Below are positions 8,625 through 19,993 of a DNA stretch of 64,000 bases, piece by piece. The translations under genes were made by a program, and so were the position numbers. Source of the stretch: a virus; the IMG/VR virus record IMGVR_UViG_3300045988_159436; one strand, written 5' to 3'. Position 1 is the stretch's first letter; each line of letters starts with the position of its first letter. A model generated the notes under the pieces. That model was not told the DNA's origin. It was given only the letters and a program-made list of their open reading frames with translations, and made no database searches.

Positions 8625-8797
8625 TATATAACTACGTTATATATTGTCTCTATATATATATTTAATAATATTATATTATTATATTAATAATAATTATATA
8701 GGGTAGCACAAAAATGAAGATTTGTCAATAGATTTTTTAGAGAAATTTGTGAAATCTTTGTGAATTATTTTTAGTTAAATTTTTTTGCAAAAAAGTG

Positions 8798-8826
8798 TTG
8801 ACAAACGCTAAAAATTATGGTATAAT
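8798..8826 (+). promoter_or_regulatory. sigma70-type promoter TTGACA-17-TGgTATAAT
   Basis: consensus -35/-10 with extended -10. Confidence 0.7.
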
Positions 8827-8855
8827 GTTAATACATTCTGAAATGAGGTGTAGAA

Positions 8856-9161
8856 ATGAAAGAAGAAGACATTGTAGATTTACCGTTATATGACTTGTTT
8901 AAATTTCTTGCAGAAAAAAATGCAGGAGAGGTTTTAATAATTAGGGGTATTTTTACAAAAGCGCAAGATGCTATGTTAGCAAGTGCTGATAAATTTTTAA
9001 AGAAACTTTCTGAGGAAAGTGAAAAAGAGAATTACGAAGTCAATTTATCAATGGCTATTCAATGTTATGCACAGGCATTGTTTATAGGCGAAAAAATAGA
9101 ATTGTGTGATAGTGTAAGCTATGATTTAACACCTGAATGTTTTAAAGGTGTTGACAATTAA
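8856..9161 (+). CDS. hypothetical protein
   Basis: ORF downstream of consensus promoter. Confidence 0.5.
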   Translation: MKEEDIVDLPLYDLFKFLAEKNAGEVLIIRGIFTKAQDAMLASADKFLKKLSEESEKENYEVNLSMAIQCYAQALFIGEKIELCDSVSYDLTPECFKGVDN

Positions 9162-9179
9162 CCAAAAGTGTGATATAAT
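9151..9179 (+). promoter_or_regulatory. sigma70-type promoter TTGACA-17-TATAAT
   Basis: consensus. Confidence 0.65.
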
Positions 9180-9208
9180 ACAATAAAAATTGCAAAGTTG
9201 GTGGCAGA

Positions 9209-9457
9209 ATGAATAAAGAATTAGCTTTAGAACAAATTGATGCTTGTATCTTAATGCTTGAACAGATTAGGCAGTCTATAACAGGCGAGGGCGGGGACAC
9301 ACCCAAGCAGTTTTGGATTGACTCTGATGGAGTTAAGCATTTTGAAAAAGACCCTTACATACTTGATGGAGATGTTTTTTGCTGTGGCGAGCGTTGTAGG
9401 GTAGATAACGATAAATATATCTGTCAAGTATGCGGGTCAAAATATAGATGTAAATAG
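9209..9457 (+). CDS. hypothetical Cys-rich small protein
   Basis: ORF track. Confidence 0.45.
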   Translation: MNKELALEQIDACILMLEQIRQSITGEGGDTPKQFWIDSDGVKHFEKDPYILDGDVFCCGERCRVDNDKYICQVCGSKYRCK

Positions 9458-9467
9458 AGGTGGTTTT

Positions 9468-9920
9468 ATCAAGAAGCTAATAAGTGTTTTAGCAACACTA
9501 CTTCTGATGCTCTTTTTGGTTCTGCCAACAGACAAATCAAATTCAACACCAAGAGTTGATGCTTCGGAAATAAAAGTAGAATATGAACTTAAACCGCCAA
9601 AAATTATTTCTTACGATATGTTGGCAACAGCTTATACAGCGGCAGAAGATGAATGTGGAAGACCTTCTTGGCACCCAGATTATGGCAGAACTGCTTCTGG
9701 TGAATTTGTGAGAGAGGGAATTATAGCCGCAGATACAAGCGTGTTGCCTATGCACAGCAGGGTTTACATTATTGCTGGTGAATACAGTGGTTACTACGAG
9801 GTTAAAGATACTGGTGGAGCTATTGTAGGCAATAGAATAGATATTTATTTTCCAACAAAAGCGCAGGCATATAAATTCGGCAGAAGAAATGTTACTGTGC
9901 AGTTGATAAAGGAGCAGTAA
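9468..9920 (+). CDS. secreted 3D-domain (MltA/YabE-like) cell-wall binding protein; start uncertain (signal peptide precedes first ATG at 9507)
   Basis: TAYT...GxTASG...AADxSVLPMHSxVYI...DTGGAIVGNRIDIYF motif; hydrophobic leader upstream of ATG. Confidence 0.65.
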   Translation: MKKLISVLATLLLMLFLVLPTDKSNSTPRVDASEIKVEYELKPPKIISYDMLATAYTAAEDECGRPSWHPDYGRTASGEFVREGIIAADTSVLPMHSRVYIIAGEYSGYYEVKDTGGAIVGNRIDIYFPTKAQAYKFGRRNVTVQLIKEQ

Positions 9921-10382
9921 ATGCAGAGATTTGAAAGAATTTACAAAGATGCAAAATTGCCGACAAGAAAGACGGCAAGAAGTGCTGGTTATGATATGTA
10001 CTGTTATAGGGATACAGAAATTCCTCCTGTTTATTCTTTAAAAGATGGACAAGTAAGAATTTCTCTTACGCCTACTTTAGTGTCATTGGGAGTAAAAGCA
10101 AGGCTTGAATCAGATAAATTTTTACTTATGGCACCAAGAGGTTCTTTGTGCAAAAGAAACCTCGCATTAGGCAACACAGTAGGTGTTATAGATGCTGATT
10201 ATTTTGGCAATAAAACAAATGATGGAGAGATTTTTGCGGCAGTCATAAATTTTGGAGATGAGCCTGTAGTATTAAAAGCAGGTGAAAGAATTGTTCAAGG
10301 AATTATTTCATCATATGATAAAGTAGACTATGATGATACAACAGAAGAACGTGCTGGTGGTTTTGGTTCTACAGGAAATTAA
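9921..10382 (+). CDS. dut: dUTP diphosphatase (dUTPase)
   Basis: SAGYDMY, GVIDADYFGN, GERIVQ, RAGGFGSTGN motifs. Confidence 0.9.
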   Translation: MQRFERIYKDAKLPTRKTARSAGYDMYCYRDTEIPPVYSLKDGQVRISLTPTLVSLGVKARLESDKFLLMAPRGSLCKRNLALGNTVGVIDADYFGNKTNDGEIFAAVINFGDEPVVLKAGERIVQGIISSYDKVDYDDTTEERAGGFGSTGN

Positions 10383-10391
10383 AAATAATAC

Positions 10392-10420
10392 TTGACAAAA
10401 TTAAAAAAGTGTGGTATAAT
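10392..10420 (+). promoter_or_regulatory. sigma70-type promoter (family copy cTTGACAAAAtTAAAAAAGTGTGGTATAAT)
   Basis: consensus. Confidence 0.7.
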
Positions 10421-10452
10421 ATATACATAATAAAAAACAAAGGAGAATTCGA

Positions 10453-10836
10453 ATGGATAAGATTAAGTATGTAGTAAACAAAGAAAAAGGAACAGTAACT
10501 GCTATTGCAACTAATTGTCGTGGAGATGTTGTACGCAAAACAAATAAACTTGCAAAAGGTGCAGGTGCTTGGTATACTTTTGATGCTTCTGTAATTCCTG
10601 ATACATTAAGTGCAACAACAAGAGTTCATGGAGCAGATGTGTTTGATGAAGAACAAGGCAAAGCATTGGCTCGAAAAAAATTGCTTTTAAAATATCATAA
10701 AGAAAGCCTGAAATCATTGCATTCTTGCTTGCAGGCTCATGCAAGACTTATGTTATCTCTTGATACACTTTACAATAAAGAATGCGAGAAGGTAGCAAGC
10801 TATAAACAAGAATGGGAAACTCTTAAAAAAGGGTGA
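10453..10836 (+). CDS. hypothetical protein
   Basis: ORF track. Confidence 0.5.
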   Translation: MDKIKYVVNKEKGTVTAIATNCRGDVVRKTNKLAKGAGAWYTFDASVIPDTLSATTRVHGADVFDEEQGKALARKKLLLKYHKESLKSLHSCLQAHARLMLSLDTLYNKECEKVASYKQEWETLKKG

Positions 10837-11054
10837 CTATAGATTAGGTTATTGCTTATCCTATGCTCCATAGACGTAGCTAGAGTAGAAAGCGAAAGGG
10901 CGAATTAACCAGCGATAAAGGTTACTACGAGATGAAGGTTGTGCACTGACCTTATTCGATACCCTCCCGCTATCAGGGTGTTGATTTACAGTGCTTGAAT
11001 CACTAAACAAAAAAACAGATGTGACCGCTACAGCTTACCAGGCTGGCGGTCTAT

Positions 11055-11140
11055 GGAGGATTAGCCTAATGGTAAGGCATCAGTCTTGAAAACTGACGTG
11101 CGATTAAAGTCGTTTGTGGGTTCGAGTCCCATGTCCTCCT
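11055..11140 (+). tRNA. tRNA-Ser(TGA), type II
   Basis: cloverleaf by eye, long variable arm, CCA encoded. Confidence 0.7.
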
Positions 11141-11146
11141 CCACAT

Positions 11147-11222
11147 GAGTCAGTGTATTCTTGGGGTAAGGAAACGGTCTGCAAAACCGTTAAAATTCAC
11201 GGTTCAACTCCGTGCTGACTCT
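11147..11222 (+). tRNA. tRNA-Cys(GCA)-like (atypical D-arm)
   Basis: acceptor GAGTCAG/CTGACTC, anticodon loop ctGCAaa. Confidence 0.5.
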
Positions 11223-11239
11223 CCAATAAAAAATAATGC

Positions 11240-11268
11240 TTGACAAATACACAAAAGTGTGATATAAT
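11240..11268 (+). promoter_or_regulatory. sigma70-type promoter inside tRNA array
   Basis: TTGACA-17-TGtGATATAAT. Confidence 0.65.
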
Positions 11269-11279
11269 ATATATATAGT

Positions 11280-11350
11280 GCGGTAATAGTTTAAGGGTAA
11301 AACTTTAGCCTTCCAAGCTAATGTTACGAGTTCGATTCTCGTTTACCGCT
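11280..11350 (+). tRNA. tRNA-Gly(TCC)
   Basis: cloverleaf by eye. Confidence 0.7.
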
Positions 11351-11355
11351 CCAAT

Positions 11356-11426
11356 GGGCTGTTAGTTTAACGGTAGAACAGTGGTCTCCAAAACCATTAA
11401 TGGGGGTTCGATTCCTTCACGGCTCG
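11356..11426 (+). tRNA. tRNA-Trp(CCA)
   Basis: cloverleaf by eye. Confidence 0.7.
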
Positions 11427-11430
11427 CCAT

Positions 11431-11502
11431 ACTTAGGTAGTTCAATGGTAGAATCCCGCTCTGTTAAAGCGGTAGTTGTTGGTTCGAGTCCAACCCTAAG
11501 TG
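11431..11502 (+). tRNA. tRNA-Asn(GTT)
   Basis: cloverleaf by eye. Confidence 0.75.
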
Positions 11503-11507
11503 CCAAT

Positions 11508-11578
11508 GGAGGGTTAAGTCAACGGTAGACTAGGCAACTTATAATTGCTTAATATTGGTTCGATTCCAGTACCCTCAA
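11508..11578 (+). tRNA. tRNA-Ile(TAT) (AUA-reading) - acceptor 1:72 mismatch
   Basis: anticodon loop ctTATaa; good D and T arms. Confidence 0.5.
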
Positions 11579-11583
11579 CCAAT

Positions 11584-11657
11584 CTTTGTGTGGCGCAGTT
11601 TGGTAGCGCATTCGCTTTGGGAGCGAAGGGTCGCAGGTTCAAATCCTGCCACAAAGA
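11584..11657 (+). tRNA. tRNA-Pro(TGG)
   Basis: cloverleaf by eye. Confidence 0.75.
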
Positions 11658-11801
11658 CCAAAGACTATAAAAGGATAGGGCACTCCCTAGCGCAAAGTGG
11701 AGGATGCGGATTTCCGCTGTCGTAATGGCATCGTCTAAAAAAATCCTTTTAATTTGCCAGAGTAAAGCTAGCAAATGCTCTGGCATTAGATTGCGGGTGG
11801 G

Positions 11802-11875
11802 AGGCAAGGTGTTCTCGCAAGCCTCATAAGCTTGTTTAAGGTGGGTTCGATTCCCATACCCGCTCCCAAATAAAA
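11802..11875 (+). tRNA. tRNA-Met/Ile2(CAT), 5' end uncertain
   Basis: anticodon arm caagc-ctCATaa-gcttg, T arm gtggg-ttcgatt-cccat. Confidence 0.45.
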
Positions 11876-11937
11876 GTTCTAGCTTGGGCATAAGCTCTGG
11901 GGCTACCGTAGATAGGGACATTTCCCTATCACTTAAT

Positions 11938-12010
11938 GTGAATATAGCTTAGTTGGTAAAGCACTTGACTTTTAATCAAGATAGCGGAGGTTCAATTCCT
12001 CCTATTCACA
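11938..12010 (+). tRNA. tRNA-Lys(TTT)
   Basis: cloverleaf by eye. Confidence 0.75.
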
Positions 12011-12022
12011 CCAATTAATAAT

Positions 12023-12058
12023 GCAGGGGTTGCATAGTTGGCGATTGCACCAGACTGT
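12023..12058 (+). tRNA. 5' half of a tRNA split by HNH-gene insertion (acceptor GCAGGGG, D arm)
   Basis: pairs perfectly with 3' half at 12664-12688; anticodon arm cannot be completed by eye. Confidence 0.4.
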
Positions 12059-12073
12059 AAAGGAGCATAAAAA

Positions 12074-12667
12074 ATGCTTTGCGAAAACTGTAATAAAGAG
12101 CATAATGGAAGTTATGGTTCTGGAAGATTTTGTTCTAAAGAATGTGCTAAGTCTTTTTCTACCAAAAATAAAAGAAAACTAATAAACGAAAAGGTTAGTA
12201 ACAGTTTAAAAGGACGCATTGTTTCGGATTTAACTAGGAGAAAAATATCAGATGCTGGAAAAGGGAGAAGACATACAGAAGAGACTAAGAAGAAAATACA
12301 AAAAAGCAAATTAGAATTTTATAAAGAAGAAGAAAACATTCTTAAAATATCTATAGCGCATCTTGTCCAAAAAGGCAAGAATATAAATTCTATCTTAGAT
12401 GTTAGTCCTAGAACAGTGACTAAAATTTTAAAAAGGTTAAAAATTGGTTGCTCGTTGTGTGGTTGGGATAAAGCCACTTGCGACATTCACCATATTAAAG
12501 GCAGAAAAATAGTTAATCCTAATGCTCATAGTAATTTAACTTACATTTGTCCAAACTGTCATAGATTAGTACATGCGGGTTTAGTGGATTCAAAAGAGTT
12601 AGTGACACTTGAACAACATATAGGAGATAGGTGGAAAGAATACTATTTTAGAAAAGAGACACCGTAG
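12074..12667 (+). CDS. HNH homing endonuclease with N-terminal Zn finger and NUMOD3-like repeats
   Basis: CDIHHIKGR...N...CPNCHRLVH. Confidence 0.75.
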   Translation: MLCENCNKEHNGSYGSGRFCSKECAKSFSTKNKRKLINEKVSNSLKGRIVSDLTRRKISDAGKGRRHTEETKKKIQKSKLEFYKEEENILKISIAHLVQKGKNINSILDVSPRTVTKILKRLKIGCSLCGWDKATCDIHHIKGRKIVNPNAHSNLTYICPNCHRLVHAGLVDSKELVTLEQHIGDRWKEYYFRKETP

Positions 12668-12688
12668 GTTCGATTCCTACTCCCTGCA
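12664..12688 (+). tRNA. 3' half of split tRNA (T arm + acceptor TCCCTGC)
   Basis: gtagg-ttcgatt-cctac then tccctgc-a-cca. Confidence 0.4.
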
Positions 12689-12694
12689 CCATAT

Positions 12695-12728
12695 TTCCCA
12701 TTAGCTCAATGGATAGAGCACAGGTCTT
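12695..12728 (+). tRNA. tRNA-Arg(TCT) exon 1 (ends after U34 of anticodon loop)
   Basis: TTCCCAT-TA-GCTC...GAGC-A-CAGGT-CTT|. Confidence 0.55.
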
Positions 12729-13339
12729 TAAAGATAGGAGCGTTCATGTGGAACATTAAGAAAATTGTAAGTAAAGGTGATTATTTATATGCTTTAGTTC
12801 CTGAACATCCAAAAGCAACTAAGAATGGTTACGTTCTTTTACATAGGATTGTTATGGAAAATCATCTTGGTCGGTTACTTAATGCGAATGAAGTTGTACA
12901 TCATAAAAATTTGAATAAGAAAGATAACAACATCAAAAATTTAGAAATTTTGTCTATAAGAGAGCATGCTAAAAAACATGGATTAAAACTAAAGAAACAC
13001 ATGGTTTTGTTAAAATGTCCTTGTTGCAAGAAAGTGTTCTCGCTAGCTCGAAATAAATCTTTTTTAGTAAAGAAGACAAAATATAATTGTAACTGTTGTA
13101 GTTGTTCTTGTAGAGGTAAATTAACAAAAATGATACAGCTTCAAGGAGTAACACTTGAACTGGAAGATGCTATATCGGAGAATCTCTTAACGGAATATTT
13201 GCTAAACAAAGCCGAAGACAACTCCGAGGAAACCTTCTTACAAGGGGTTCTGTAGAGACTATACGCATCTTACCTGAAATGGTAAAGAAATAGTCCAGAC
13301 TACAACACATATGTGGCTATAGAAATATAGAGTAGTAAG
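12729..13339 (+). mobile_element. tRNA intron (group I-like) carrying HNH endonuclease
   Basis: follows U, ends in G; 3' exon restores anticodon loop cttCTaa, stem, T arm and acceptor ATGGGAA. Confidence 0.5.
12746..13255 (+). CDS. HNH endonuclease (HNH_3) with C-terminal Cys cluster
   Basis: VVHHKNLNKKDNNIKNLEIL. Confidence 0.75.
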   Translation: MWNIKKIVSKGDYLYALVPEHPKATKNGYVLLHRIVMENHLGRLLNANEVVHHKNLNKKDNNIKNLEILSIREHAKKHGLKLKKHMVLLKCPCCKKVFSLARNKSFLVKKTKYNCNCCSCSCRGKLTKMIQLQGVTLELEDAISENLLTEYLLNKAEDNSEETFLQGVL

Positions 13340-13377
13340 CTAAACCTTGTGTGCAGGTTCGATTCCTGCATGGGAAA
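13340..13377 (+). tRNA. tRNA-Arg(TCT) exon 2
   Basis: ctaa-acctt-gtgt-gcagg-ttcgatt-cctgc-atgggaa-a-cca. Confidence 0.55.
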
Positions 13378-13750
13378 CCAAATAGATTATAATAGCTTGG
13401 GGTTAAAATAAAATAGTGAGTCTAGATAACCATTAGTGACTTAGGGCGCATTAAGTTGGGTCAGCAACAGAAAAATCTGACACATTGGTCTGCTAGGGAC
13501 TTTAAAAAACTCACGCCTTTTGTTCATAGAGACAGAAGTTAGCCATTGATAGTATATATTTAACTGTATAAGTATATGCCGAGGCTTTATCAGTTCGCAC
13601 TGAGCTAATTTACAGCTAGGTATAGAGCCGAAGAAGAAAGTGCCAACCAAGCCATTTTATATACTAGGACTAAAGGGTAGAACGGTCAGCTACCGCCACA
13701 GAGAAGCTCTGGTAGGAGATGCTGGGTTGACAGCCAGCTTAGTTCTTATT

Positions 13751-13823
13751 TGCCAGATAGTGTAATGGTAACACAGCAGACCTTGACTCTGTTAAGTGTA
13801 GGTTCGAGTCCTACTCTGGCATC
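13751..13823 (+). tRNA. tRNA-Gln(TTG) (C33 in loop)
   Basis: cloverleaf by eye. Confidence 0.6.
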
Positions 13824-13828
13824 CATAT

Positions 13829-13900
13829 TGAAGCATAATACAAGGGTTAGTATGCTGTGCTGATAACGCAGAAATGATGGTTCAACTCCATCTGCTTCAA
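13829..13900 (+). tRNA. tRNA-Ile(GAT)
   Basis: cloverleaf by eye. Confidence 0.7.
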
Positions 13901-13904
13901 CCAT

Positions 13905-13978
13905 GTCCTATTACCCCAATCGGCAGAGGGAACGGACTTAAAATCCGTACAGTCTCAGTTCGAATCTGAGATAGGACA
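13905..13978 (+). tRNA. tRNA-Leu(TAA) with short variable arm (atypical type I)
   Basis: anticodon loop ctTAAaa. Confidence 0.5.
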
Positions 13979-13985
13979 CCAAAAT

Positions 13986-14058
13986 GGCATATTAGTCTAA
14001 TGGCTAGGACACAACACTTTCAATGTTGGGATGGCGAGTTCAATTCTCCCATATGTCA
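13986..14058 (+). tRNA. tRNA-Glu(TTC)
   Basis: cloverleaf by eye. Confidence 0.7.
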
Positions 14059-14064
14059 CCATAC

Positions 14065-14134
14065 ATGCCTTTAGCTTAGTTGGTTAAAGCGGCTGGTTGA
14101 AGCCCAGCAGAGTCCGTTCGATTCGGAGAGGCAT
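14065..14134 (+). tRNA. tRNA-Phe(GAA)
   Basis: cloverleaf by eye. Confidence 0.65.
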
Positions 14135-14139
14135 ACCAT

Positions 14140-14212
14140 GCTAGTGTAGCTCAATAGGTAGAGCAACGGCTTTGTAAGCCGTGGGTTGCGGGTTCAATTC
14201 CTGCCACTAGCT
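14140..14212 (+). tRNA. tRNA-Thr(TGT)
   Basis: cloverleaf by eye. Confidence 0.75.
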
Positions 14213-14354
14213 CCATTTTAAAAATTGAATAGTTAGGGAAAGCCCTAGCTATTTTTGTTTATATGCAATAAACTTTATAAAAAACACTGTTACAACTGTA
14301 AAAAACAAAATAATTTATTTGCAAAGGAAGTGTTTGTTATAAGGAGTGTTCAAA

Positions 14355-15302
14355 GTGATTACTAAGGTGAAAAAGCGGGATGGAAGAATTGTAGATTATG
14401 ATTCTTCTAAAATTGTTAATGCGATTCTAAAAGCTTTTAAAAGTTTAGGAATGTTAGAAGGAAAAGAAGTAAGGTTAGCAAACAAGATAGAATCTAAAAT
14501 TAAAGAGACAGCAGAAAGTATTCCAGAAGTTGAATTTATTCAAGATATGATTGAAAAAGAGTTAATGGCATCAAATTTTAAAAATGTAGCGAAAGAGTTT
14601 ATTTTATATAGGGAAAAAAGAAATAGAGAGCGGGAAAGAGATTCTGCGTTAAGAAAAGAAATATTAAGTAAAATAGAATGTACAAATGTGATGAATCAAA
14701 ATGCAAATGTAGATGAAGAAAGTTTTGGTGGCAGAAAATTTGAAAGTGCCGCAGTAATACATAAAGATATTGCGTTAAATGATTTAATGTCAAGTGATGT
14801 AGCTAAAGCACATAAAGAGGCAAGAATTTATATTCACGATTTAGATAGTTATAGTGTTGGGATGAGCAACTGCTTGTTTTCGGATTTAGTACCGCTATTG
14901 ACAAATGGTTTTATTACAAGAAATGGTGATGTAAGAGGGGCAGGAAGCTTTAGCACTGCTTGCCAATTAGTAGCTGTAATATTTCAGGCTCAAAGCCAAT
15001 GTCAGTTTGGTGGAATAGCTTCTGCACATATAGATAGAGATTTAGCACCATTTGTAAAAAAGAGTTTTGTAAAACATTTCAAAAATGGTATGAAATATGT
15101 AGAGCAAAAAGAAATAGATAAAGAATTGGAATATTTTTTAGGCTTTTTAAAAAACAATGAAGAGAATATACATATAGATAATGATGTCTTTAAGAAATAT
15201 GAAAAGGCATATGAATACGCAAATGCTATGTTAGAGCTTGAAGGAAAACAGAGTACAGAAGCAATGTATCATAATTTAAATACCTTAGAGAGTCGCCCAG
15301 GT
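14355..15302 (+). CDS. nrdD: anaerobic ribonucleoside-triphosphate reductase NrdD exon 1 (ATP-cone + N-terminal catalytic region); 3' junction approximate (15293 or 15302)
   Basis: ATP cone VKKRDGRIVDYD..; class III RNR-like segments; frame ends at a stop inside the intron. Confidence 0.7.
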
Positions 15303-16451
15303 AGGAGAACTGCCTGTTAGAGATGGAAACACTTTAATGTAATCGGGCAAAATCGGTAAATTCTAAAAAATTGGAGAATATATGAAGAAATTAGATGTAG
15401 AAATAGAAAATGAAATTATTAAATATTATATTGAATATTTTTATAGCTGTCGTAAGATAAGTAAAGATTTAGGAATAAGTGGAGCTACTGTTTTAAATGT
15501 TTTAAAAAGAAATGGGATTCCTACGAGAACAAAGGGAGGAATTTATGAATTGCCTACTTCTTTATTGGTGCAAAAATATAGAGAAGGGGTTTCTATAATT
15601 CAGCTTTCTAAAGAATATCAAGTATGTGTTCAAACTATTGCAAATTATTTGGCAAAAGCGGAAATTAATTTAAATAACATATATTACAATAAGAAATTGG
15701 ACAGAAACTATTTTGATAAAATAGACACATACGATAAGGCTTATTATTTAGGCTTTTTGATTTCTGATGGTAGCGTAGGCACTTCTACAAATAAAATTGA
15801 TTTAACGTTAAAAAAATCAGATAGTTATATTTTAGACGTTTTAAGTTCTAAAATTAATAATACTAATCCTATATATTTTTCTAAAAGAGGAGAGGCTTCT
15901 TTAACTTTTAAGTCTAAAGAAATAAAAAATGCTTTAGCAAAATATGGAGTAATTCCTAATAAAACGTTTAAAACTTATTTACCTGAACTTGAAATGTCTT
16001 TAATGCCACATTTAATTCGAGGTTTAATAGATGGAGATGGTTGGGTATCATTTAAATCTCACGCTATTGGTTTTTGTGGCTCTGTTGAGCTAGTAGGACA
16101 AGTTAGAGATTTTTTAGTAAAAATTCTAGGCGTTTTTCCTGTAAAAATTATTGAACATTCAAGTATTTGTCAAGTTAATTGGGCATCAAAAAATGATATT
16201 ATAAAAATAGGAAATTATATTTATAAAGATAAACAAGATTGTTTTCTACATAGGAAATTCAATAATTTTATGAAAATACCGAGATAACTTAATATGTAAT
16301 AGTATTAAGTATTGTAGAGCGTAGCGATTGAACCTCTAAGAGAATATAATATCGCCAAGAGTGTCCGATACCCTAACAAGTAAAGTTGAGGGTAAAAATG
16401 TACGCCGAACTTATGGGAAACCATAAGAACTATGAGATAAAAAGCTTGTAG
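15303..16451 (+). mobile_element. group I-like intron 1 in nrdD with LAGLIDADG HEG
   Basis: starts after U, ends in G; shares gggcaaaatcggt and a ~75-nt 3' core with intron 3. Confidence 0.6.
15382..16287 (+). CDS. LAGLIDADG homing endonuclease (two-motif)
   Basis: YLGFLISDGSV and LIRGLIDGDGWV. Confidence 0.85.
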   Translation: MKKLDVEIENEIIKYYIEYFYSCRKISKDLGISGATVLNVLKRNGIPTRTKGGIYELPTSLLVQKYREGVSIIQLSKEYQVCVQTIANYLAKAEINLNNIYYNKKLDRNYFDKIDTYDKAYYLGFLISDGSVGTSTNKIDLTLKKSDSYILDVLSSKINNTNPIYFSKRGEASLTFKSKEIKNALAKYGVIPNKTFKTYLPELEMSLMPHLIRGLIDGDGWVSFKSHAIGFCGSVELVGQVRDFLVKILGVFPVKIIEHSSICQVNWASKNDIIKIGNYIYKDKQDCFLHRKFNNFMKIPR

Positions 16452-16766
16452 GATAACAAATTGAGTCAATTACCTTTTACTTCAATTAACTATGGTTTAG
16501 ATATAACGCCAGAAGGAAGATTAGTAACAAAATGGTTATTAAATGCTTCTATTGAGGGAATAGGCAAAAATCATTTAACTCCGATTTTTCCAATAAGTAT
16601 TTTTCAATACAAAAAAGGGGTTAATGATAGAGAGGGAACTCCTAATTATGATTTAAAAAAATTAGCCATAAAGAGTTTAAGTAAAAGGATATATCCAAAC
16701 ATTGTAAATTGTGATTGGAGTAAAAATCCTGCTTCAAACATTGATGAAGAAATGGCTACAATGGGT
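16452..16766 (+). CDS. nrdD: NrdD exon 2
   Basis: ...SQLPFTSINYGLD...EEMATMG| ends at G of conserved MG-CR junction. Confidence 0.65.
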
Positions 16767-17012
16767 AAGTGGAACTTAGCCCATTTAAAACCCTTTGAAC
16801 GCCGTCAGGCGGTGTGACCAGTAGGTTGCTAACGGTTAGGACTCTTTGAGTTGAGACCGTGCTAAGGTTCATATATTGTGATGAACAAAGTGTATCGACT
16901 AGCCGTGATGAGTGTAGCGGCGTAGGGACGGAGATAGACACCGTATCCGAAGCGGAGGGCTGTTTTTAAACAGATAATATAGTCAGTACCACTAGCGATA
17001 GTGGAGAATACG
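16767..17012 (+). mobile_element. small ORF-less group I-like intron 2 in nrdD (246 nt, GC-richer, structured)
   Basis: splits conserved ..MG|CRTLIG..; follows U, ends G; stop codons in reading frame. Confidence 0.55.
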
Positions 17013-17897
17013 TGTAGAACCCTGATAGGTAAAGATAGACATGGAATGGGGTATAAGAAAGACGGTAGAGGTAATGCTTGCCCTGTAACTATTAATTTAC
17101 CTAGAATTGGAATAAAACATGGCATTTGCTTAGGCAAACCATTAGATTTAGAAGGATTTTGGAAAGAGCTTGATGAAGTATTAGATTTAACAGAAAAGAG
17201 CTTAATAGAGAGATTCTTTTATATGTGTAAGCAGAGTGTAAAAGCCGCTCCGTTTATGTATAACAATAATATTGTTGCTGATGCAAAATTGGCAAGAGAA
17301 AAAGGCATTTATGAAACATTAAAGCATTTTACATTAGGATTTGGATATATTGGTATTGCTGAAATGTGTCAAGCACTGTTTGGTGCAGACCATTATGAGT
17401 CTAAAGAGAGTTTGGATTTTGCTTTGAAAGTTGTTGAGCATATTTATCAAAGAACGGTTGAAGCAAGTGAAAAGCATAATTTGAATTTCTCTTGTTATGC
17501 TACTCCTGCTGAAACATTGGCATATAAATATGCTTTGGCTTTAAAGAAAGAGTTTGGAGTAATACCTAATGTTACAGATAGGGAATATATAACTAATTCA
17601 CATCATGTTCCAGTTTGGCAACAAGCATCTATTTTTGAAAAATTAGATATTGAAGCTAAATTCTGTAAATACCCCACGGCAGGCTGTATTACTTATATTG
17701 AGTTTGAAGCAGATGCAATGAAAAATGAACAAGCGGTAGAGGATATTATGGATTACGCAATGTCTATAGATGTTCCCTATTTAGCTTATAATTTTCCTAT
17801 TGATGTTTGCCATGATTGCGGATTACAGAGTGATATCCCAAGTGTTTGCCCGAATTGCGGAAGCAATAATATTTTACGTTTAAGAAGGGTTACAGGT
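17013..17897 (+). CDS. nrdD: NrdD exon 3 (..CRTLIGKDRHGMG..CPVTINLPRIG.. C-terminal Zn ribbon CHDCG..CPNCG, ..RVTG)
   Basis: class III RNR motifs; glycyl radical motif RVTG|Y split by intron 3. Confidence 0.7.
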
Positions 17898-18199
17898 TAT
17901 TGAATAGCCGTATTTACAAGAAATTGTAAATATAATTATTGGGCAAAATCGGTGAACCCTAAAATTTTTACTTGACAATACTTAAGAAATGTGATAAGTT
18001 TAAAAAAATTAAGGGAATACCGAGGTAAGTTATTAGATAGCGAAAGGCTGATAGCTACTGTAGAGCGTAGCAGGTGAATAAATATAATCCTGCCAAGAGT
18101 GTCCGATACCCTAACAAGTAAAGTTGAGGGTAAAAATGTACGCCGAACTTATGGGAAACCGTAAGAAGTTAGGATAAAAAGCCTAGCGATAACATAATT
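17898..18199 (+). mobile_element. ORF-less group I-like intron 3 in nrdD (302 nt), homologous to intron 1 core
   Basis: 16357-16428 nearly identical to 18094-18166; boundaries follow U / end G. Confidence 0.55.
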
Positions 18200-18331
18200 G
18201 TATTTAACCGTTGACTACCGAAATTTTAATAAAGGCAAACAAAAAGAGTGTGAAGATAGGGTCAAGCATACTAAATACACAAAATTAAGATATGATGCTT
18301 ATGATGATTTAAAAACTAAACAAACAAAATA
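18200..18331 (+). CDS. nrdD: NrdD exon 4 (YLTVDYRNFNKGKQKECEDRVKHT...)
   Basis: continues glycyl-radical region like T4 NrdD (RVCGYLG..FNAGKQEEVKRRVKH). Confidence 0.6.
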
Positions 18332-18350
18332 ATTATTAGGTGGTATTAAA

Positions 18351-18920
18351 ATGTCAAAAAAAGTTATTTTAATAAGTGGGAAAGCCAGAAGCGGAAAAGA
18401 TACTTTAGCAAGGGTATTAAAGGATTATTTAAAAGAACAGGGCAAAGATGTATTAATTACTCATTATGCTGATAGCTTGAAGTATATTTGCGAAACAGTT
18501 TTTAAATGGGATGGTAAAAAAGATGAAAAAGGTCGGCAATTATTAATAGATATTGGTGAATCTGTAAGAAAATATAATCAAAATTATTGGGTAGATTGCT
18601 TAAAGTCTGCAATAAAAGGAGTAGAGAGAGATAGTCCAAGTCTTTCTTCTAATTCTGTTTATATTGTTGCTGATTGTCGTTACGAAAATGAAATAATGGA
18701 AATGAAAGAATTTTCTCCTTTGGTTATCAGGGTGGAGAGAGAGCATCAATTATTTAGAAACGGTTTAACTTTAAAGCAGTCTTTAAGTGCTAGTGAAACA
18801 GAGCTAGATGATTTTTCATCTTTTGATGTGACTATCTATAATGATTTTGAAACTATGGAAGAATATGAAAAATATATTCGAGAAGTTGTTGTAAAAGAGG
18901 TGTTGGAATGGTTGATGTAA
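18351..18920 (+). CDS. P-loop (deoxy)nucleotide monophosphate kinase-like protein
   Basis: ISGKARSGKDT Walker A. Confidence 0.55.
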   Translation: MSKKVILISGKARSGKDTLARVLKDYLKEQGKDVLITHYADSLKYICETVFKWDGKKDEKGRQLLIDIGESVRKYNQNYWVDCLKSAIKGVERDSPSLSSNSVYIVADCRYENEIMEMKEFSPLVIRVEREHQLFRNGLTLKQSLSASETELDDFSSFDVTIYNDFETMEEYEKYIREVVVKEVLEWLM

Positions 18921-19993
18921 CTCCTCAGACTTGTAAAGTAGGAACATTCAAAGAGCTTGAAAGCACAGAAGGTTTTTATATAGCACAAGAGAAGTTAGAT
19001 GGGCATAGAGCGTGTATGCACATAGGGACAGAGTTTAATAGAATAATGTTGCGTGGCTTTTCTAAGAAGACAGGACAAAGAGACGAAGCAACAGATAAAT
19101 TGCCACATTTAAGAGACTTTGATTTGCATACACTGACAGGAACAGTTTTAGATGGTGAGTTAGTTTTTGGAGATGATTCTCACTTTTTTGAAGTCCAGAA
19201 AGTTATTGGAGCAACGCCTGAAAATGCAATAGCATTTCAGAAAAAAAATGGATATTTAACTTTTAAAGTATTTGACATTGTTTATTATAATGGTAAAGAT
19301 ATAAAAGACTTACCTCTTATTGAGCGGTTAAAAATTTTAGATAATATTAGATATATGTTTAGTGATTATATCAAAATGGTGCCAAGTTATTTTATAGAGA
19401 ATTGTAAAACACAGGGGGCTATTTTTGAATTAACCCAAGATGTTAGAAAGCCTACTAAATCTTTTGCAGACCTTTTAACGTTTTTTTGGTCTTGCGGTAA
19501 AGAGGGATTGGTATTGAAAGATATTTTTGCACCCTATGTAGAAAAAAGGAGCGGTAATTTTTTGAAGTATAAGAGTATAAAAACAGCAGACTTAGTTATT
19601 ATGGGGTTTGAATCACCATCAAGTCTTTATAATGGTAAATTAAGTGATGATGATTTATTATTAAAGTGGAAATATTGGGAAACAACAAGTTTTGGAACAA
19701 GGATTCCAGTCACTAAATCCTATTATAATAAATGGGTAGGCGGGGTAGTTTGCGGAGCTTATAAAGATAATAAGTTAGTTTACGTTTGTACTGCAAGTAA
19801 TTTATCAGATGAATTAAAAGCGGAAATAAAAGAGAATGGAAAAGATTCATATATAGGTAAAGTTGTGGAGATACAATATCAGAATTCTTTGATAAGCAAA
19901 GATGGTAGAGTAGTTACGTTAATTAATCCAAGATTCATTAGATTTAGAGAAGATAAGTCTGCTAAAGAATGTTTACAAGGAGATATAACTTGA
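18908..19993 (+). CDS. ATP-dependent DNA ligase
   Basis: motif I KLDGHR, III LDGELV, IV EGLVLK, V FLKYK. Confidence 0.8.
   Translation: MVDVTPQTCKVGTFKELESTEGFYIAQEKLDGHRACMHIGTEFNRIMLRGFSKKTGQRDEATDKLPHLRDFDLHTLTGTVLDGELVFGDDSHFFEVQKVIGATPENAIAFQKKNGYLTFKVFDIVYYNGKDIKDLPLIERLKILDNIRYMFSDYIKMVPSYFIENCKTQGAIFELTQDVRKPTKSFADLLTFFWSCGKEGLVLKDIFAPYVEKRSGNFLKYKSIKTADLVIMGFESPSSLYNGKLSDDDLLLKWKYWETTSFGTRIPVTKSYYNKWVGGVVCGAYKDNKLVYVCTASNLSDELKAEIKENGKDSYIGKVVEIQYQNSLISKDGRVVTLINPRFIRFREDKSAKECLQGDIT

Follow-up and report, generated by a model that had tools for sequence, protein, structure and literature searches.

A survey published in 2026 described group I introns in the tRNA genes of completely sequenced bacteria (PMC13011429). 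Among them are introns of tRNA-Arg(UCU) genes that carry a PD-(D/E)XK endonuclease in Bacteroidota and Campylobacterota, and a tRNA-Leu intron likewise inserted between positions 34 and 35, after C32 U33 U34 (PMC13011429). In the bacterial loci that we parsed, the tRNA-Arg(UCU) introns either have no open reading frame (ORF) and measure 214–375 nt, or are 525–655 nt long and contain a PF11645 PD-(D/E)XK gene. In the ORF-less introns the 5′ splice site is followed by a few bases, the sequence GGAGC, a P2 hairpin and then P3. The classic bacterial tRNA introns of Anabaena and Azoarcus likewise interrupt the anticodon loop and have a compact core and a short P1; for self-splicing of the Anabaena intron the exons must pair in the anticodon stem, to judge from the title of a 1993 paper by Zaug et al. 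cited in PMC3984707. The same review cites a Synechocystis tRNA-fMet intron that encodes the endonuclease I-Ssp6803I (Bonocora and Shub 2001, in PMC3984707). For phages, this 2014 review placed all introns then known in protein-coding genes, despite the many tRNA genes that phages carry (PMC3984707).

The locus described here lies in a viral DNA stretch of 64,000 nt (IMG/VR record IMGVR_UViG_3300045988_159436), which was analysed as a whole and is called the window below. Very probably it is a phage tRNA-Arg(UCU) gene that is functional and in which a mobile group I intron of the bacterial tRNA-intron type separates U34 from C35. Based on its resemblance to other bacterial tRNA introns, the intron probably belongs to subgroup IC3. 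It has the tRNA, the CTT/CTAA insertion site and a homologous ribozyme (137.4 bits with the bacterial covariance model R1, see below) in common with the bacterial tRNA-Arg(UCU) 34/35 introns (PMC13011429), as well as GGAGC, P2 and the J6/7-P7 sequence, and we assign it to this known bacterial lineage. It differs from them in its occurrence in a phage, its endonuclease, the loop that holds the endonuclease gene and the overlap of this gene with the ribozyme: the bacterial PF11645 gene is located between the strands of P6, whereas the unrelated HNH_3 gene of the window is located in the P2 loop and overlaps the ribozyme from the P2 3′ strand to P6.

Other described systems share fewer of these properties or different ones. 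The Anabaena and Azoarcus introns, unlike the window intron, lie in a different tRNA and contain no ORF. The Synechocystis intron, as represented in PMC3984707, is also a bacterial-type group I intron in an anticodon loop with its own endonuclease targeting the tRNA gene, but it differs in its tRNA (tRNA-fMet), its site (33/34), its endonuclease (PD-(D/E)XK and not HNH) and its bacterial host. The introns of I-HmuI (phage SPO1) and I-PfoP3I (Pf-WMP3) likewise combine a phage group I intron with an HNH-family endonuclease, but they interrupt protein-coding genes such as that of DNA polymerase, whereas the window intron interrupts a tRNA gene (PMC3428280). T4 SegB is an endonuclease whose gene is tied to a phage tRNA cluster, but this gene is free-standing, outside any intron and any tRNA gene (PMC2330249). 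An earlier note on this DNA had called an endonuclease-bearing intron in a phage tRNA-Arg(UCU) gene unusual. For phages this judgement fits the literature that was searched: the 2014 review (PMC3984707) had no intron in a phage tRNA gene, and a search of the literature, mostly outside the subscription journals, returned neither a later case in phages nor any tRNA intron with this arrangement of the endonuclease gene. For the tRNA it needs correcting, as introns in bacterial tRNA-Arg(UCU) genes have been reported, with a different endonuclease (PMC13011429).

The insertion site in the tRNA-Arg(UCU) gene

The phage of the window has a T4-type large terminase, an SPP1-type portal protein and a G+C content of 32.5%, and none of the deposited phage genomes is close to it. 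Its 15 ordinary tRNA genes are clustered at 11055–14215 on the + strand, and all parts of the interrupted gene given below are on the + strand as well. The 5′ exon (12695–12728) comprises the acceptor strand TTCCCAT, the D arm, the anticodon stem strand CAGGT and the loop bases CTT (C32 U33 U34). The 3′ exon (13340–13380) continues the loop with CTAA (C35 U36 A37 A38) and comprises the anticodon stem strand ACCTT, the variable loop, the T arm and the acceptor strand ATGGGAA; the discriminator A is at 13377, and CCA is encoded at 13378–13380. Both exons were delimited from the sequence, with ARAGORN and by alignment to an intronless allele. The 611 nt between them (12729–13339) are preceded by U34 and end in G (the omega-G, 13339).

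The tRNA finder ARAGORN did not report the split gene in a plain run. With introns allowed, as the earlier note had proposed, it recovered a split tRNA at 12695–13380 but placed the junction wrongly, calling a tRNA-Stop with anticodon TTA and an intron of 603 nt. The spliced candidates TCT, TTT and TTA all obtained the same ARAGORN score (115.3 each), and the tRNA fold alone is therefore insufficient to place the junction.

The placement comes from an uninterrupted allele. By scanning viral contigs for the predicted spliced tRNA sequence, we found L003, a contig of 96.5 kb that is 94–96% identical to window positions 8763–19115. The tRNA cluster is shared by L003, in which an intact tRNA-Tyr(gta) is immediately followed by a tRNA-Arg(tct) without interruption. 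This intronless allele, with the sequence ...GCACAGGTCTTCTAAACCTTG..., is a tRNA-Arg(tct) according to ARAGORN; it is a real allele and no chance resemblance. In the alignment, precisely 12729–13339 is missing from L003, where the anticodon loop is CTTCTAA. The insertion costs no exon base, and the exons differ from L003 at two positions only. Since L003 lacks exactly these 611 nt, the insertion is placed between U34 and C35 (CTT/CTAA). After removal of the insert, the sequence folds into a cloverleaf with the anticodon UCU (ARAGORN 115.3, tRNA-Arg(tct)), and the predicted spliced junction, CUU-CUAA, joins ...CAGGUCUU to CUAAACCUU.

The ARAGORN call and the tied scores of the three candidates would also suit a different junction, from which a suppressor tRNA (UUA) or a tRNA-Lys(UUU) would result. 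To this we give hardly any credence: the intronless allele reads CTTCTAA, all family members have the arrangement CTT/...G/CTAA, only the CTT/CTAA site follows U and ends in G, and the match to the bacterial model R1 ends exactly at 13339. A protein-spliced tRNA intron of the archaeal or eukaryal type was also considered and rejected, as its site would be 37/38, the insertion here is at 34/35, and the insert is explained by a group I fold. The gene is thus read as tRNA-Arg(UCU), as in the earlier note, and L003 supports this host gene and fixes the junction CTT/CTAA and the anticodon TCT that the note had given. The two halves it had described, the 611-nt insert with U before it and G at its end, and the start of an HNH gene 17 nt into the insert (ORF at 12746) were all found in the sequence.

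tRNA-Arg(UCU) is the sole Arg tRNA of the cluster. AGA, the main Arg codon, accounts for 63% of the Arg codons in 19 large ORFs of the window. With one Arg tRNA in the cluster and Arg codons this rich in AGA, selection for a spliceable gene is plausible.

Sequence and covariation of the group I ribozyme

Rfam Intron_gpI (RF00028) matched 13110–13318 with 29.1 bits (E 8.6e-6 in a 301-nt scan), which is under the gathering score of 50, and a wider Rfam scan of 4.3 kb gave no group I match. The Rfam model fits poorly in its P1-P2 part, as expected with the true P2 5′ strand ~400 nt upstream. A covariance model specific to the lineage (R1) was built from the cores of eight bacterial ORF-less tRNA-Arg(UCU) introns, with no viral sequence included. 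R1 matched the window at 13157–13339 over the full model length with 137.4 bits (E 7e-37), ending at the omega-G.

The cores of 11 viral homologues were aligned separately (alignment A1; P3 to P9 including the P3/P7 pseudoknot, 42 pairs in nine helices). In these homologues 97.4% of the cells were paired, and 22 of the 42 pairs had changed on both sides. Slid controls had 32–43% of cells paired and 3–8 two-sided pairs, and none of 500 shuffles reached the observed values. The earlier note's assignment of the insert to the group I introns is thus supported by the Rfam match, by the R1 match of 137 bits and by covariation in P3–P9 and P2.

The core could be followed helix by helix in the window. 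P3 is formed by AGATGC (13165–13170) and GCATCT (13265–13270), with compensatory changes in four of its six pairs. P4 and P5 occupy 13175–13227 (P4, 13175–13180 with 13222–13227; P5, 13185–13188 with 13215–13218, the P5 loop lying inside), and the P6 hairpin follows at 13228–13251 (13228–13229 with 13250–13251, and 13233–13236 with 13243–13246); these helices are based on the Rfam match and on the pair counts in A1. J6/7 and the P7 5′ strand, GUAGAGACUAU, are invariant in the family (13252–13262). P7 pairs 13257–13262 with ATAGTC (13290–13295) and has one compensatory pair. The P8 hairpin (13271–13284; 13271–13274 with 13281–13284) shows compensatory changes in three of four pairs, with 100% of cells paired. 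The P9 domain covers 13299–13339: P9 itself (13299–13303 with 13332–13336) encloses two hairpins, one of which, at 13317–13330, has a GAAA loop, and AAG then leads to the omega-G at 13339. Among the family introns that were parsed, 11 of 11 viral and 22 of 22 bacterial ones have an omega-G before CTAA. The conserved J6/7 motif is GUAGAGACUA, and the Azoarcus intron contains a similar one.

Upstream of the core, a long-range P2 was predicted in all 23 introns examined, formed by the 8–9 nt right after GGAGC and the 8–9 nt before P3. In the window, the 5′ strand TTCATGTG (12743–12750), which contains the ATG of the HNH gene, is predicted to form a duplex with the 3′ strand CACTTGAA (13152–13159), with seven pairs and one U.U mismatch. 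Compensatory changes in P2 reach as far as the start codon, with GUG/CAC in L100 and UUG/CAA in both L093 and L096. GGAGC itself is found near the 5′ end in 23/23 introns. It is invariant even in the ORF-less bacterial ones and is therefore a ribozyme element and not merely a ribosome-binding site. Together with the bases before it, this sequence provides a probable internal guide sequence, UAG followed by GAG (12735–12740). In the candidate P1, GAG (12738–12740) would pair with the exon CUU (12726–12728), with U34 opposite G, and in the candidate P10, UAG (12735–12737) would pair with CUA of the 3′ exon (13340–13342), each over 3 bp. The bases of P1 and P10 are invariant, so that covariation can neither test nor support these two helices, which we predict from the order of the bases.

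Two other arrangements were tried and rejected. A guide sequence around 13113 (GAGGT), with the ORF in a P1 loop, had no consistent exon-complement position across the homologues; the site is a stretch of conserved Cys-Arg-Gly codons that is missing in L100, and GGAGC was preferred. A local P2 hairpin, TTCAAG/CTTGAA (13144–13163), was replaced by the long-range P2 of all 23 introns.

The state of the core bears on whether the intron could be a decayed relic that no longer splices, leaving tRNA-Arg dead and the phage dependent on host tRNA. We consider this unlikely, as all family-invariant core positions are present in the window, every helix from P3 to P9 pairs, the match to the bacterial model is full-length at 137 bits, the ORF is intact, the sequence is nearly unchanged across several contigs, and AGA is the main Arg codon. 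What such a relic would explain is the U.U mismatch in P2 and the short P1, and splicing is a prediction here; moreover, the adjoining tRNA-Tyr gene has truly been destroyed by an endonuclease gene, so the phage tolerates the loss of a tRNA. A functional intron is the reading that we prefer and follow below.

The HNH endonuclease gene and its overlap with the ribozyme

The ORF at 12746–13255 encodes an HNH homing endonuclease of 169 aa. Pfam HNH_3 (PF13392) matched residues 31–75 with 44.1 bits (1.6e-11), above the curated cutoff of 24.8, in agreement with the identity proposed in the earlier note, and several PHROGs families of HNH endonucleases matched the protein at about 1e-17. Homologous protein clusters numbered 411 at E ≤ 1e-20, nearly all of them unnamed and from metagenome assemblies. 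No chain was matched in a PDB sequence search with the protein, I-HmuI included. The target and the activity of the endonuclease can be suggested from its position and its family.

With 17 nt before it and 84 nt after it, the ORF leaves too little sequence for a separate ribozyme; it overlaps the ribozyme, a feature absent from the description in the earlier note. In the phage introns, P2 closes a loop of ~400 nt with the HNH gene, and the ATG lies in the P2 5′ strand. From this loop the ORF runs on through the P2 3′ strand, P3, P4, P5 and P6, which make up its last ~100 nt, and its stop codon is the UAG within the conserved J6/7 GUAGAGACUA. The apparent ribosome-binding site GGAG, 5 nt before the ATG, coincides with the likely guide sequence. 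Among the HNH homologues, the C-terminal tails past the P5 loop vary in reading frame and length, which suggests that RNA structure rather than protein function constrains the sequence from there on.

It is very improbable that a free-standing HNH gene landed in tRNA-Arg and inactivated it, with no intron involved. The insertion is exact and zero exon bases are lost, and a group I fold that is conserved, covaries and recurs in ORF-less bacterial introns takes up ~230 nt of the insert. These properties weigh against such a landing more than two observations weigh in its favour, namely that 592 nt with an HNH+NUMOD3 ORF have replaced 10 nt in the tRNA-Tyr gene next door, and that relatives of this very HNH gene are free-standing beside an intact tRNA-Arg(tct). 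We therefore keep to the reading as a group I intron with the HNH gene inside it.

Distribution and probable mobility of the intron

Homologues were sought in viral contigs both with the HNH protein and with the core motif. At least 11 viral tRNA-Arg(UCU) genes, all different, were found to have a homologous intron at CTT/...G/CTAA, and the relatives of the locus include at least 20 viral contigs. The anticodon-stem halves vary among the viral homologues, and their complementarity is kept, which fits the need for exon pairing stated for the Anabaena intron in the title cited in PMC3984707.

The closest contigs differ in which insertions they carry. L003 has neither the Arg intron nor an insert in tRNA-Tyr; in L011, L013 and L014 the Arg gene contains the intron and tRNA-Tyr is intact; and the window, L012 and L010 have both. 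Across several contigs the intron sequence is nearly unchanged, and in the window its ORF is intact. L010 shows one mismatch to window positions 12715–13400, with both flanks ~10% different. A near-identical intron in diverged flanks points to recent transfer, and the pattern agrees with that expected after recent homing with a short co-conversion tract.

In L221, labelled as from a Butyrivibrio MAG, an HNH homologue again lies inside a tRNA-Arg(tct) gene, in an intron of 616 nt. A scan of bacterial genomes for the J6/7-P7 motif returned at least 120 loci, many of which are tRNA introns, and among them was the tRNA-Arg(UCU) lineage of the bacterial survey (PMC13011429); the HNH homologue was in none of the 120 bacterial loci examined. 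Among the deposited phage genomes of INPHARED, the intron core had no DNA match and the HNH domain was matched only in part, with no full-length homologue.

Two kinds of relative have other arrangements of the endonuclease gene. In another viral tRNA-Arg(UCU) gene (L097, 4210–4523), the intron is 240 nt long and most of the HNH ORF has been deleted; it keeps the first ~35 nt (GGAGC, the P2 5′ strand and a remnant, GTGTGGAAAATTGAGA) and the entire core. L224 and L225 (3001–3556), phage contigs from bovine metagenomes, have a free-standing HNH homologue of 156 aa that is 61% identical and is without the C-terminal tail, and 12 nt separate the end of this gene from an intact tRNA-Arg(tct) downstream. 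In this arrangement the endonuclease may not yet have invaded the intron, or may already have left it. Free-standing endonucleases in a phage tRNA cluster are also known from T5, whose tRNA region contains HNH genes.

A model for splicing and homing

In the model that we propose, the tRNA cluster would be transcribed, as we infer, and the intron would fold in the transcript. The exons would pair in the anticodon stem, CUU-GAG would form P1 and CUA-UAG would form P10. The long-range P2 would close over the ~400-nt loop with most of the endonuclease gene, and P3 to P9 would form the catalytic core. Guanosine-initiated transesterification would then join the exons into a 72-nt tRNA plus CCA, and the spliced tRNA-Arg(UCU) would read AGA, the commonest Arg codon of the phage. 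The HNH_3 protein, in turn, would cut or nick the intronless tRNA-Arg(UCU) gene of co-infecting relatives, and repair would copy the intron in (homing).

GGAG appears to be both ribosome-binding site and guide, P2 includes the start codon, and the end of the ORF coincides with P2–P6; for these reasons translation and ribozyme folding probably exclude each other on one RNA molecule, and ribosomes traversing P2–P6 could disrupt the fold. A more far-reaching reading, which we put forward tentatively and with considerable doubt, is that this layout is a built-in switch, in which each precursor is either translated into the endonuclease or folds and releases tRNA-Arg(UCU). If that were so, the phage or the intron could time or ration the tRNA for its main Arg codon, and a further possibility would be that a pool of unspliced precursor escapes host anticodon nucleases. 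Taken with the free-standing relatives, the family would also sample the path by which a free-standing endonuclease enters an ORF-less tRNA intron.

Together with its relatives, the locus shows that phage tRNA genes have been invaded too, and not just protein-coding genes. Standard tRNA finders miss the split gene, so that phage tRNA-Arg(UCU) is under-counted, and the endonuclease of the intron gets labelled as an ordinary HNH gene. ORF-less bacterial introns, bacterial introns with PD-(D/E)XK in P6, phage introns with HNH in P2, the HNH-deleted intron of L097 and free-standing HNH genes beside an intact target tRNA form a natural series for studying how endonucleases colonise ribozymes, with coding and RNA structure in one sequence.

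Neighbouring features of the window

Several further insertions and RNA features were observed around the tRNA-Arg gene. Directly upstream, the tRNA-Tyr(GUA) gene (12023–12690) is destroyed: compared with L003, 592 nt (12062–12653) replace the 10 nt TCTGGCACGT, with which the gene has lost the 3′ anticodon-stem strand and the first part of its variable arm. The insert has an ORF (12074–12667) for a 197-aa HNH+NUMOD3 endonuclease that runs into the T arm. The possibility that the split tRNA at 12023–12690 contains a second intron was rejected, as the insert gave no group I match and 10 nt of tRNA-Tyr are missing relative to L003.

The gene of NrdD (anaerobic ribonucleotide reductase, 14346–17903) is split by two inserts that are not in L003, where NrdD runs uninterrupted over at least 716 aa. 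The first insert (15302–16465, 1164 nt) follows ...ESRPG and contains a 301-aa HTH/LAGLIDADG-like ORF, and the second (16767–17012, 246 nt) has no ORF and follows ...EEMATMG, adjoining GCR. With the boundaries as read, both follow U and end in G, like group I introns. Neither insert had an Rfam match in three scans, and a naive splice did not restore a single reading frame; R1 gave only a weak match in the first insert (16382–16434, 9.4 bits).

Within the tRNA cluster, just before tRNA-Gln, a skipping-rope RNA (RF02924) was detected at 13666–13746 with 49.7 bits (gathering score 36.7). Between tRNA-Arg and this RNA lie 285 nt (13381–13665) that have no ORF and are ~97% conserved in L003; they matched no Rfam family and folded no better than shuffled sequences (z = -0.99).

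One place in the cluster is occupied by tRNA-Lys(UUU) in the window (11938–12013) and by tRNA-Val(UAC) in L003 (5413–5488). About 15 differences fall within 40 nt (11950–11988), and L010 differs from the window where L003 does; the tRNA gene at this site has been either replaced or remodelled. Further downstream, R1 produced a weak partial match at 17949–18065 (14.8 bits, E 0.015). At the point corresponding to window position ~17983, L003 has ~900 nt of extra sequence, part of which is 72% identical to window positions 16162–16463.
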